Shown one piece after another: positions 37,166-40,578 of a stretch of 64,000 nt of DNA. The notes beneath the pieces were generated by a model. It saw only the letters and a list, made by a program, of their open reading frames with translations. It ran no database searches and was not told the DNA's origin. The translations under genes were made by a program, and so were the position numbers. This DNA comes from Gemmatimonadaceae bacterium (lineage in GTDB: Bacteria > Gemmatimonadota > Gemmatimonadetes > Gemmatimonadales > Gemmatimonadaceae). How positions within the stretch are numbered: the stretch's first letter is position 1; each line of letters opens with the position of its first letter. The DNA lies in contig DASYRX010000159.1 in the NCBI GenBank assembly GCA_036003845.1, positions 605 to 64,604 of the forward strand, in the 5' to 3' direction.

Positions 37166-37984
37166 ATGGAACCCCTGTCTCATTCTTTGATCGAAGCCGA
37201 CCCGGAGCACGCGCACTCGGGCGCGGACGAGCTTTCGAATTTGCGCTCGCAGGTCGCGAGCCTAACTAGAGAGCGCGACCAGCTGCTGGCTGTGGTGGAC
37301 ATCCTCCAGGAAATCTCGTCCACTCTGCACTTCTCCGAGATTCTGCAGCGCATCGCGCGCAAACTCGGCGACATGTTCGGGTTGGATCGCTCGTCGATCT
37401 TCCTTGCCGGCGACGGTGGCGCTCAGGTGCGCTTGGTCGCGACGTACGAAGACCCGTCGCTCAGAAATCTCGTCGTGGATCTCGATCGCTATCCGGAATT
37501 GCGGCAGGCGTTCGATTCGGGCGAGACCGTGTTCATTCCAGACGCCGTCAACGATCCGATGCTGTCGCAGGTGCGTGAGAACCTGGATCTCCGCAACGTG
37601 CGTTCGATCGTTGTAGTGCCGGTGCGTTGGAGAACGAGCGTGATCGGCGCGATCTTCCTGCGCACTGAGCGCGGCTCGGTTCCCTTCTCCCATAGCGACG
37701 TTGAGTTTTGTCAGGTGATCGCGTCGCTTACGGCGACTGCGCTGCGCAACGCGCATCGCTATGAGTCGCTGCAGGCTGAGAGCGGCGACCGGATCGCCCG
37801 CGAGCGGCGTGCAGAGCTGGAGCGCATCGCCATCCTCGCGTTCATGCGCCGACTATTCGATCGTTATGCAACGAGCGACGATCACGTCTGGGCGGAAACG
37901 TTGCTCCCTCGCGCTTCCGACGAAGAGCTCGATCGCCTCGTCTCGGTGACGATGAAGGTGGTGCAGGAAGAAGCTGCAGGCTGA
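37166..37984 (+). CDS. GAF domain-containing protein
   Basis: ORF track. Coiled-coil N-terminus followed by a GAF-like block (SIFLAGDGGAQVRLVATYED...VVVPVRWRTSVIGAIFL). Confidence 0.75.
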   Translation: MEPLSHSLIEADPEHAHSGADELSNLRSQVASLTRERDQLLAVVDILQEISSTLHFSEILQRIARKLGDMFGLDRSSIFLAGDGGAQVRLVATYEDPSLRNLVVDLDRYPELRQAFDSGETVFIPDAVNDPMLSQVRENLDLRNVRSIVVVPVRWRTSVIGAIFLRTERGSVPFSHSDVEFCQVIASLTATALRNAHRYESLQAESGDRIARERRAELERIAILAFMRRLFDRYATSDDHVWAETLLPRASDEELDRLVSVTMKVVQEEAAG

Positions 37985-38061
37985 GGTCTGAGGTCTGAGG
38001 TCAGAGGTCAGAGGTCAGAGGTCAGAGGTCAGAGGTCAGAGGTCAGAGGTCAGAGGTCAGA
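37982..38061. repeat. Tandem heptad array, 11 units (TGAGGTC x3 then AGAGGTC x8)
   Basis: Direct reading of ctgaggtctgaggtctgaggtcagaggtcag... The first unit contains the GAF gene's TGA stop. The last unit contains the stop of the minus-strand four-helix-bundle gene. Confidence 0.95.
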
Positions 38062-38452
38062 GCGGCGTAAGGCGACGCATTAACGCCGTCAACATCCGAC
38101 CGACTTCGTCGAGCAATCGCTCCGCGACAGCTAAGTTGTCGTCGCGTAAGTATTTCAGTCGCCGTGCGATTCCCAAGTGCGTGTCAAGCTCACGCGCGGA
38201 ACCGCGCGCCATTGCCAAGAACCGCGCGTAGTCTCGCGGCTGATTGCGACCTTTTCCTTCTGCGATGTTGGACGCGATTGATACCGCAGCTGTTCGCATT
38301 TGGTGCACGAGGCCAAAGCGCTCAGATGCGGGAAGGCCGCGCGACGCACGATAAACTTCCTCTGCCAAGTCCATGGACTTCTGCCACACGATCAAATCGC
38401 GATGGCTTGCCGCGGGGCGTGGTGCGCGCGATGTCGGCTTCACGAGCAACAC
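38057..38452 (-). CDS. Four-helix-bundle protein (23S rRNA intervening-sequence protein family)
   Basis: ORF track: HRDLIVWQKSMDLAEEVYRASRGLPASERFGLVHQMRTAAVSIASNIAEGKGR...FLAMARGSARELDTHL matches the family signature as I recall it. Confidence 0.85.
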   Translation of the reverse strand: MLLVKPTSRAPRPAASHRDLIVWQKSMDLAEEVYRASRGLPASERFGLVHQMRTAAVSIASNIAEGKGRNQPRDYARFLAMARGSARELDTHLGIARRLKYLRDDNLAVAERLLDEVGRMLTALMRRLTPL

Positions 38453-38484
38453 GGTAGCTGCTTCTCAACGAGACGCGACATCGT

Positions 38485-40578
38485 TTGCACGCTAGCACTA
38501 TCGTTCAGACGCAATCGCCATTTTGCGAGCAAGCTCTGACCTCTGACCTCAGACCTCTGACCTCCTTATCAGACCGCGCCTCCGAACTGCGCGAAACGCT
38601 CGAACGAGCGTCGTACGAATACTTCGTACTCGACAGCCCGAGCATATCGGACGCGGAGTACGACAAGCTTTTCCACGAGCTAAAAGAGATCGAGCGCGAG
38701 CACCCAGAGCTGCGCACGCCGGATTCCCCGACGCAACGCATAGGTGCAGCGCCAGTCACCGGACTGCCGAAGCACAAGCACGCCGTCGCGATGCTCTCGC
38801 TCGCCAATGCCTTCAATGACGAGCAGCTGAGCGAGTGGGAAGATCGCCTCGTGCGTATCGCCGGTGATGAAATCCGCGCCGCCGGCTACTCCGCCGAGCT
38901 CAAGATCGACGGCACCGCGGTAAGCCTAACGTATGAGGACGGCGTGCTGGTTCGCGGAGCCACACGTGGCAACGGTCTCATCGGCGAAGACGTCACGCCG
39001 AACATCCGCACAGTGCGCGACGTTCCGCTGCGCCTGCGTGGTTCGCGCATTCCATCGATCGTCGAGATTCGCGGCGAGATCTACTACCCGTTCGATCTCT
39101 TCGAGAAGATGAACGAGGAGCGCGTGCGAGCCGGCTTGCCTGTGTACGCCAATCCGCGCAATACAGCAGCTGGAAGTCTGCGGCAACTCGATCCGGCGAT
39201 GACAGCCAAGCGTCCGCTGCGCTTCTTCGGCTACACGGTTGTCGCGCCGTTAGGCGATCCCCTCCCCTTCCGCACGCAGACCGAGGTGCTCGATGGACTG
39301 AAGGAGTGGGGCGTTCCAGTTGCACCGTATCACAAGCACTGTCCCTCGTTGCAGGACGTCACGGCGTGGGCGCACGCCCTCGAGTCCACGATTCGCCCGA
39401 CGCTCAGCTTCGCGATCGACGGTGGCGTCGTGAAAATCGATCCGCTCGCGCTGCAGGAAGACTTGGGTGTCGTGGGTGGTCGCGAGCCGCGCTGGTCCAT
39501 CGCGCGAAAGTTCGCGCCTGACATCGCCGAGACGCGCCTGCTCGAGATCCGCGTGAACACAGGGCGCACCGGCGTCCTGACGCCGTACGCTGTCCTCGAG
39601 CCAGTCGAGATCGGCGGTGTGACCGTGACGAACGCCACGCTGCACAACGAGGATCTCATCAAACAGAAGGATCTGCGCGAAGGTGACATGGTTCTGGTTA
39701 AGCGCGCCGGCGAAGTCATACCGCAGATCATCAGTCCGGTCCCTGAAAAGCGCACCGGCGATGAACGGCCCTGGGAAATGCCGAAGGTGTGCCCGTCCTG
39801 CGGCACGGCCGTTGTGCGTGAGGAGGACGATGCCGGCGTCTACTGCCCTAACGCGAGTTGCCCTGGGCGCCGTCTCGAAGGGCTCGTCCACTTCGCGAGT
39901 CGCGGTGCGATGGACATTCGCGGCCTCTCCTACCAACGGATTCAGCAACTCGTGGACGCTGGACTCGTGCGCGACGCAGCCGACATCTACAGCCTGACGG
40001 CGGACGCGCTGGTCCAGCTGGAGCGCTTCGCCGAGAAGAGCGCGCAGCAGCTCGTCGCGGCGATCGACGATTCGCGAAAACAGCCCTTGGCGAGGCTTCT
40101 GTTCGCTCTGGGGATCCGACACGTGGGCGCGACTGTCGCCGAGCAGCTGGCCAACGAGTTCGGAACGCTCGATGCGTTGATGGGCGCCTCGCTCGAGCAG
40201 GTGTCCGGCGTGCACGGCGTGGGCGACGAGATAGCCAGCGCCGTCGTGCGGTACTTCCAGGACCCATCCAGCGCCGATCTGGTAGCCCGTCTGAAGGCTG
40301 CCGGGGTCAATTTCGAGCAGCCGCGCCGAGCGATGGCCGGGGGTGCCCTGAAGGGGCTAACGGTCGTCATTACAGGCACGCTGCCGACCCTGAGCCGAAC
40401 GGACGCGAAAAAGCTTCTCGAGCAGGCGGGGGCGCGCGTGGCAGATTCGGTCTCCCGAAGCACGGATTTCGTGGTTGCGGGAGAGGCGGCAGGGAGTAAG
40501 CTGGAAAAGGCGCGTCAGCTCGGCGTCGAAGTGATCGATGAAGCAGAGCTGCGCCGCCGGATTGAAACGCTTGCATGA
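38485..40578 (+). CDS. ligA: NAD-dependent DNA ligase (start uncertain; only in-frame candidate is the TTG at 38485)
   Basis: ORF track: [33 protein letters not shown] (adenylation Lys), zinc-finger [25 protein letters not shown], HhH and BRCT regions. Confidence 0.95.
38538..38565. repeat. Tandem heptad array (GACCTCN)x4, inverted relative to 37982-38061
   Basis: gacctct gacctca gacctct gacctcc. Lies inside the annotated 5' end of the ligA ORF. Confidence 0.9.

Follow-up and report, generated by a model that had tools for sequence, protein, structure and literature searches.

Proteins of the four-helix-bundle (4HB) family, also termed S23p, '23S rRNA IVS protein' or Avd-like, were first described inside the intervening sequences (IVSs) of 23S rRNA. 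What, then, is a gene of this family doing between two protein-coding genes of a Gemmatimonadaceae bacterium, and why is it framed by tandem repeats of seven nucleotides? The locus belongs to contig DASYRX010000159.1 (assembly GCA_036003845.1), of which positions 605 to 64,604 of the forward strand were analysed; this stretch of 64,000 nucleotides is called the window below. The 4HB gene occupies 38057..38452 on the minus strand. It forms the core of a 470-nt insert, in which the gene is packaged between inverted arrays of about four heptads made of the host's own repeat, in the short spacer between a gene for a GAF-domain protein and ligA. The build of this cassette is identical to that of the IVSs of rRNA, and the architecture is conserved and selected. 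In the interpretation favoured here the insert is an IVS-type cassette whose arms would pair into an RNase III-type duplex and be cleaved there, and a probability of roughly one half is attached to it.

The product of the gene scores above the curated cut-offs of both family profiles, PF05635 (E 2.5e-36, 124.5 bits against a cut-off of 33.8) and TIGR02436 (E 5.8e-35, 119.8 bits against 24), and matches the solved structure of XCC0516 (PDB 2GSC) over residues 16-128 with an E value of 1e-26. These matches bear out the family membership proposed by an earlier, sequence-only reading of the window. That reading had also placed the gene outside rRNA, and an Rfam search of 37000-39500 indeed returned no rRNA and no other family, the flanks being GAF and ligA. 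In an alignment of homologues the helix-2 motif (R..S...N..E-G) is preserved, Q51, S58, N62, E65 and G66 being invariant and R53 nearly so. Alignment of orthologues makes GTG 38443 the likely true start, giving a protein of 128 amino acids, and the product is basic, with a pI of about 11. Against orthologues the ratio dN/dS is 0.08-0.16 despite saturated synonymous sites, and the gene therefore encodes a working protein; judged by these ratios, it evidently evolves under purifying selection. It is the single 4HB gene of the window. The nearest homologue of known structure, XCC0516, forms a homopentamer (Lin et al. 2006, as cited in PMC4990558).

The arms of the cassette, neither of which is assigned to a strand, are built of the same heptad in opposite orientation. 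The left arm (37983..38062) consists of 11.4 copies of GAGGTCN and is G-rich on the plus strand, and the right arm (38533..38564), C-rich on the plus strand, is made up of GCTC and four TGACCTC or AGACCTC units; from the 4HB start to the right arm there is a spacer of 80 nt (38453..38532). Tandem Repeats Finder assigns a period of 7 to both, with 11.4 copies and 98% matches at 37983-38062 and 4.4 copies at 38534-38564, in agreement with the 11 and 4 inverted units counted originally. The window contains 18 occurrences of the two-unit motif GAGGTCNGAGGTC, with at most one mismatch, where 0.44 would be expected, and no shuffled sequence yielded as many; among periods 5 to 12 only period 7 forms arrays of at least four units there. 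Chance microsatellites were rejected as an account of the heptad arrays. The best inverted arms, 38032-38063 and 38533-38564, are 32 nt long, 97% complementary and separated by 469 nt; their inner ends extend the array, the GAGC that ends at 38063 pairing with GCTC at 38533-38536. The arrays had been described as exact reverse complements, able to form a stem of up to 28 bp around some 470 nt. The inverted relation and the stem stand; strict exactness does not. When the region is folded as RNA, the arms are predicted to close the whole insert on either strand, in the minimum-free-energy and the centroid structure alike (z -7.4 and -7.0). Neither a target-site duplication nor a direct repeat outside the cassette arms was seen.

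The same arrangement recurs around 4HB genes of many phyla. Eighty genomic loci encoding 4HB homologues were fetched from Acidobacteriota, Gemmatimonadota, Planctomycetota, Alphaproteobacteria, Bacteroidota, Chloroflexota, Verrucomicrobiota, Fibrobacterota, candidate-phyla-radiation (CPR) lineages and others. Stem scoring, which covered 83 loci, compared the 260 nt on either side of the gene and took the best ungapped stem that the two can form, with a threshold of 16. Scores of at least 16 were obtained at 61 of the 83 4HB loci and at none of 289 shifted controls, and the bracketing anticipated for other members of the family is thus found among homologues elsewhere. The 31.8 kb of sequence lying no more than 200 bp from 4HB genes contain 126 arrays of period 7 or 14, and the other 406 kb contain 94, an enrichment of about 17-fold. 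Such arrays stand on both sides of the gene at 51 of the 80 loci, with octads at several more. Stem lengths cluster at 24-35 nt; the arms usually measure 28-32 nt, four units being the mode. The heptad unit is lineage-specific (AGGGACT, AGTTTCT, GGCAATG, ATCGTGA and others), and the units have a YAGK core in common, AG occurring in 83% of them and in 56% of composition-matched shuffles. The G-rich arm is the 5' one at 57 of the 61 loci; as the pair is inverted, this polarity belongs to the element and does not depend on gene orientation. Flanking ORFs end about 0-10 nt from the outer arm edge, and the ribosome-binding site or start codon of the downstream gene often lies 1-25 nt beyond the C-rich arm. 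Most units carry a stop triplet, and the array therefore stops all three reading frames. The 4HB homologue of one locus (L057, 2869-3396) is broken up between two frames and still flanked by arrays; from its reading frames it is probably a frameshifted pseudogene. Telomere-like G-rich heptads, such as GGGGTTA x9.3, GGGCTTA and TAGGGAC, occur in L019 (2868-2907) and other loci.

The identity of build with rRNA IVSs can be followed in the rrn operon of Azospirillum lipoferum 4B (L209). Its 4HB ORF lies inside the match to large-subunit (LSU) rRNA and this is therefore a genuine 23S rRNA IVS. The arms are degenerate heptads, CAGAGGA CGGATGA CAGAGGA CGGAGGA, with the complement downstream, and in the predicted fold their pairing closes the IVS (z -10.4). 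For Coxiella, a terminal stem of 28 bp is reported, and the S23p ORF of the IVS is preceded by three GACAGAT heptamers in tandem, at the first of which RNase III cleaves (PMC4990558). The correspondence with rRNA IVS elements that the sequence-only reading had suspected is accordingly seen twice, in the heptad-built arms around the Azospirillum 4HB gene and in the RNase III-cut stem of Coxiella.

Outside rRNA, 186 GGGAATC arrays, most of four units (28 nt), have been catalogued in Xanthomonas campestris (Rehm et al. 2015, PMC4692102). Many are inverted pairs with 21-67-nt spacers inside operons. Array #15 of the catalogue, tabled as unpaired, coincides in part with the annotated XCC0516 start, the protein family being unmentioned (PMC4692102). 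At this locus (L223) the accB stop TGA is followed, after 6 nt, by GGGAATC GGGAGTG GAGAATC GGGAATC and then by the 4HB ORF; on the 3' side a degenerate complementary array of four units ends exactly at the accC ATG. The arms close the predicted fold (z -8.9).

Four further examples were taken from plasmid records. On pNPUN01 of Nostoc punctiforme, (CAGGAGT)x8 reaches up to the 4HB ATG and (ACTCCTG)x4 stands at the stop, with the ATG of the next gene immediately after. Picosynechococcus PCC 7003 (L210) has a 4HB cassette between cas10/cmr2 and cmr3, and in pANA02 of Anabaena sp. 90 (L208, 1625-1900) a 4HB gene lies between cas6 and cas4, behind about 40 CAGGTGA/CAGGGAA units. The presence of the 4HB family in cas loci has been reported before (PMC3936711) and fits cassette insertion into operons. 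In plasmid 1 of Gemmatirosa kalamazoonensis (L205; 2330-2420, 2845-2880) the units are octads, GGGCAGGA / CTCCTGCC. A complete ORF-less hairpin is located about 100 nt upstream of this 4HB gene and a further C-rich arm just past its stop; a single G-rich arm thus has two C-rich arms as possible partners.

How long the cassette has resided at its junction can be read from relatives, in which the space between GAF and ligA was traced through GAF orthologues. The order ligA, array, 4HB, array, GAF is kept in four loci (L081-L084), whose 4HB proteins are 95% (L083 and L084), 70% (L081) and 68% (L082) identical to that of the window. Between the window and L081 or L082 synonymous sites are saturated, with dS of 1.1-2.9. 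Protein identity among these orthologous loci is 82-84% for LigA and 87-92% for GAF, and the 4HB protein evolves faster than both. The GAGGTC core is invariant across the orthologous arrays and the adjoining non-coding spacer has diverged. The ligA-side arm has four units in every locus; on the GAF side the number lies between 5 and about 11. Where the variable seventh base differs, it does so in both arms at once, with GAGGTCT/AGACCTC in L081 and GAGGTCA/TGACCTC in L082.

Other, more distant relatives have different contents at this junction. The gap between GAF and ligA is 28 nt, with neither 4HB gene nor arrays, in L220 (GAF 67% identical), and measures 171 nt without arrays in L218 (GAF 73%). 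A ferritin-like gene lies there in L216, L217 and L219 (GAF 70-75%), and these ferritin-gene junctions have no comparable arrays. In L222 (GAF 89%) an opposite-strand cation-efflux gene, for a CDF transporter, takes the place of the 4HB gene. Filled and cassette-free junctions thus coexist among relatives, and the cassette is therefore a discrete insertion. The sequence-only reading had proposed a discrete cassette, mobile or RNA-processing: discreteness is upheld by the empty junctions, and recent mobility is contradicted by synteny at dS >1. The insertion is old within one clade, vertically inherited and not recently mobile. The junction as such is a hotspot of gene content, which may be a 4HB gene, a CDF transporter gene, a ferritin-like gene or none. 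At the empty junction of L220 (4336-4344), ligA begins GTGACCTCC, with one heptad unit (TGACCTC) at the start codon, which may be a seed or target for an array. The CDF gene of L222 is bordered by other heptad arrays, TAGGGGA x4 and CCTCGGT x6 (3819-3900, 4960-4990).

What would such a cassette do? In the reading favoured here, any transcript crossing it (for example GAF-to-ligA read-through, a 4HB antisense) would form a perfect duplex of at least 28 bp, and RNase III would cut this arm duplex as it does the stems of homologous rRNA IVSs. Cleavage at the arms would detach the cassette RNA from the flanking RNA and insulate the insert from its neighbours, and the 4HB protein would probably have the repeat arrays or the duplex as its target. 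Such detachment by RNase III would therefore allow cassettes to be tolerated inside operons and rRNA.

Several observations weigh against this interpretation. A scan for sigma-70-like promoters at the cassette gave no match and no promoter was placed there, and co-transcription of both arms is therefore putative. The spacer at 38453..38532 is the sole room for divergent promoters of 4HB and ligA, and alignment finds it poorly conserved among the orthologous loci. Cutting by RNase III also leaves it unexplained that the arms are tandem heptads as opposed to any inverted repeat. Arm mismatches across loci comprise 47 sense G.U against 52 A.C pairs, without strand bias, and therefore carry no signature of selection on one RNA strand. 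The joint changes of the two arms could equally be explained by gene conversion, or by one protein reading both arms as DNA. Furthermore, L222 retains a 4-unit (GACCTCN) array directly upstream of ligA without a 4HB gene, and the ligA-side array may primarily be a leader element of ligA. Finally, a scan of metagenomes for (GAGGTCN)x4 yielded 80 loci of very varied G+C from diverse organisms, none of which (0 of 80) has a 4HB gene. Seventy-two of these 80 arrays stand without an inverted partner within 700 nt (34 of the 72 lie less than 700 nt from a contig end and have incomplete flanks), and many are located 5-12 nt upstream of an ATG. This predominance of single arrays, like the missing strand bias, the ligA-side array of L222 and the heptad make-up of the arms, speaks against a purely RNA role.

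Arrays that stand apart from any 4HB gene are present in the window as well. Four units (GACCTCC GACCTCA GACCTCC GACCTAG) at 30317..30344 on the plus strand end 3 nt short of the gyrB ATG (30348), at the expected place of a Shine-Dalgarno sequence; their mRNA-sense strand is C-rich and resembles an anti-Shine-Dalgarno sequence. An ORF-less inverted pair, not assigned to a strand, lies at 62258..62337 between the convergent genes gcvH and gcvP and consists of (R-AGGTCA) x4, a 17-nt loop and degenerate TTGACCT units. It folds with -44.9 kcal/mol (z -9.2) on the plus strand and -34.9 on the minus strand, a predicted difference that suggests G.U pairs favouring the gcvH transcript. A second heptad type of the genome, with a different, ACCCCTA-like unit, takes the same position relative to a start codon: its four degenerate units at 61118..61148 (ACCGCTA ACCCCTA ATCCCTA ACGTCTA) abut the coaE GTG (61151). 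The only other period-7 array of at least four units in the window, with a unit of its own (AGCTGTC AGCTGTC AGCGGAC AGCCGAC), is found at 17954-17985.

Since the cassette heptad is also found at gyrB, in the gcvH hairpin and at ligA of L222 without a 4HB gene, the arms belong to a genome-wide repeat family. They are not private to the cassette, and the family exists as ORF-less hairpins and as single arrays upstream of starts too. The relation is asymmetric, in that 4HB genes of this subfamily nearly always lie between arrays and most arrays are not beside a 4HB gene.

In a second explanation, possible though clearly less probable than the RNase III cassette, the 4HB protein would bind the heptad arrays in trans, as DNA or single-stranded RNA, in a manner akin to RAYT proteins and their REP sequences or to an operator. 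The arrays beside the 4HB gene would be self-sites, the dispersed ones (the gyrB, ligA and coaE leaders and the ORF-less hairpins) would be targets, and the pairing of arms would be secondary. Such a role would account for the sites of the window that have the heptad and no 4HB gene, and for single arrays, which cannot work by pairing; it also agrees with the lack of RNA strand bias in the arms. Of 33 arrays remote from the 4HB gene in the 6-kb loci, 13 are made of the unit found beside that gene, against an agreement of 7% in controls drawn across loci, and the heptad at XCC0516 is the one found at 186 sites of the Xanthomonas genome. The YAGK core across units, the basic character of the protein and the homopentamer formed by XCC0516 point the same way. 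Against such putative binding, the unit follows protein clade only loosely, a link confounded by taxonomy, and AGGCAAT flanks unrelated proteins in Rhizobium and Terracidiphilus; further heptad types are present in the same loci. In addition, the modal array has four units where a pentamer would suggest five, and the 4HB protein has no known catalytic activity able to spread repeats. The RNase III cassette and recognition of the arrays by the 4HB protein are mutually compatible.

An extension of this idea, more tentative still, would make 4HB proteins the missing partner of heptameric repeats at large, among them the short tandemly repeated repetitive (STRR) sequences, GGGAATC and TAACTGA. A basic pentameric ring might read some four to five YAGK-core heptads, about one unit per subunit, in the manner of TRAP, which reads (G/U)AG repeats. 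Cassettes with an ORF, rRNA IVSs included, would then be master copies, and ORF-less hairpins and single arrays before start codons their dispersed targets. If true, this would amount to a widespread, unrecognised system of post-transcriptional control or repeat maintenance.

The variety of the GAF-ligA junction raises a third explanation, an unlikely one, in which the arrays are generic elements prone to recombination or slippage and the 4HB gene is an interchangeable passenger without functional tie to them. Such exchange would suit a junction that is occupied by a CDF gene in L222 and by a ferritin-like gene in three relatives (L216, L217, L219) and is vacant in L220 and L218, as it would the (GACCTCN) x4 array kept upstream of ligA and the other heptad arrays beside the CDF gene in L222; array copy number, moreover, varies between close strains. 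A passenger gene is hard to reconcile, however, with an association specific to 4HB genes across phyla, expressed both in the flanking stems (61 of 83 loci, none of 289 controls) and in the roughly 17-fold enrichment of arrays. Arm size is fixed at about four units, with an invariant count of four on the ligA side, and the ferritin junctions are without comparable arrays.

That the gene is the Avd gene of a diversity-generating retroelement (DGR), or the insert a recently mobile transposon or miniature inverted-repeat transposable element (MITE), is very improbable: a weak match to bAvd and DivGenRetAVD, arms that resemble terminal inverted repeats and empty sites in relatives are set against only 5 hits for the 4HB gene in 2.9 million viral contigs, without sign of phage carriage. 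The DGR Avd was rejected at a DivGenRetAVD score of 34.3 bits against a cut-off of 80, with no reverse transcriptase among the neighbours. The recent transposon or MITE was rejected in view of four-locus synteny at dS >1, one 4HB gene in the window and the lack of a transposase and of a target-site duplication. Two of the viral contigs (L214, L215) carry distant, partial 4HB homologues without arrays, which are possibly DGR Avd genes.

The arrays reach into both neighbouring genes. Upstream, and convergent with the 4HB gene, lies the GAF-domain gene (37166..37984, plus strand; Pfam GAF, E 2.4e-17), and downstream ligA, for the NAD-dependent DNA ligase (38485..40578, plus strand; NCBIfam PRK07956, E 3e-249). 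The left array opens with the GAF stop TGA (37982-37984), which is supplied by its first units (TGAGGTC), and holds the 4HB stop TGA (38059-38057) in its last unit, and the ligA ORF opened at TTG 38485 runs through the right array. The three coding boundaries said to overlap the arrays, namely the two stops and the 5' part of the ligA ORF, do so. The right arm is situated directly 5' of the ligA reading frame or inside it, for the start codon of ligA is uncertain: there is no ATG, GTG or TTG from the array to the conserved N-terminus. The candidate alternatives are an N-terminal extension of LigA encoded by the array and initiation at a non-canonical codon. The ligA frame is open through the array in four of five genomes (window, L081, L082, L084 and L222), the third unit having AGA or CGA in place of TGA; ligA of L082 has an in-frame TGA and is without any canonical start. 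For annotation, the consequence is that arrays supply stop codons and blur the starts of neighbouring essential genes, here ligA.

In a broader perspective, two orphan features described separately for decades, the IVS protein family and the heptameric tandem repeats, are parts of one architecture. To our knowledge, the '23S rRNA IVS protein' family comprises thousands of genes and has a solved structure and no function. The architecture spans Gemmatimonadota, Acidobacteriota, Planctomycetota, Alphaproteobacteria, Cyanobacteria and CPR lineages, with the same build as true rRNA IVSs. It would account for the presence of 4HB genes inside operons (accB-accC, cas10/cmr2-cmr3, cas6-cas4) and inside rRNA, and cassettes in cas operons probably explain the reported CRISPR 'association' of the family. 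XCC0516 of Xanthomonas, a tractable organism with a crystal structure of the protein, opens the way to direct experiments. A full-text literature search found no paper linking 4HB/S23p genes to heptad arrays, a link possibly published outside the literature searched, and no description of IVS-type cassettes outside rRNA.

Among the closest known systems are the IVSs of rRNA (Leptospira, Coxiella, Azospirillum L209). They share with the window cassette the protein family and an ORF within closing inverted repeats of about 28-30 nt, as well as arms of tandem or degenerate heptads with the G-rich arm 5' (GACAGAT x3 in Coxiella, PMC4990558; CAGAGGA/CGGATGA in L209). The window cassette has the closing terminal repeats around an S23p ORF and lacks the location in a 23S rRNA helix: it lies outside rRNA, between two protein-coding genes and antisense to both. 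The repeat of its arms, moreover, recurs at scattered sites of the genome. Excision by RNase III has been demonstrated for rRNA IVSs (PMC4990558), whereas for the window cassette we infer it.

Heptameric simple sequence repeats form another point of reference, with GGGAATC in Xanthomonas and GGGGA(C/T)T in Nostoc (PMC4692102), the cyanobacterial STRR and TAACTGA in Beggiatoaceae (MacGregor 2015, PMC4679880). They too are tandem 7-nt units, mostly four (28 nt), with lineage-specific sequence, frequent inverted pairs with short spacers, intergenic places in operons, arrays a few nucleotides from gene ends and single arrays just upstream of starts. The window arrays have the 7-nt units, the modal number of four, the inverted pair and the position near gene ends, along with further sites at 30317-30344 and 62258-62337. 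Unlike those repeats, the pair here encloses a conserved protein gene; the heptad papers cast the repeats as G-quadruplex or translational elements and leave 4HB/S23p genes unmentioned (PMC4692102, PMC4679880).

Three other systems resemble the cassette in part. REP sequences and REPINs with their RAYT consist of a single-copy, vertically inherited gene flanked invertedly by a dispersed, lineage-specific short repeat. The window gene likewise lies between copies of a repeat that recurs through the genome, alone or in hairpin doublets; it encodes a 4HB protein and not a Y1 transposase, however, and the arms are tandem heptads, not palindromic units. We know of no mobilising activity of the 4HB gene. 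The Correia elements of Neisseria are short and intergenic, have inverted ends of about 26-28 nt, are co-transcribed and fold into RNase III substrates, and differ from the window cassette in their unique-sequence ends, the absence of an ORF and their target-site duplications. Avd (PF22296; PDB 4DWL) is a homologous four-helix bundle. It is basic and binds nucleic acid. The window locus differs from Avd systems in having no reverse transcriptase and no template or variable repeats, and its protein scores under the Avd cut-off. S23p ORFs in rRNA IVSs, heptameric repeats and the homology with Avd were known already; the joining of 4HB genes and heptad arrays in one architecture is new as far as the literature searched shows.

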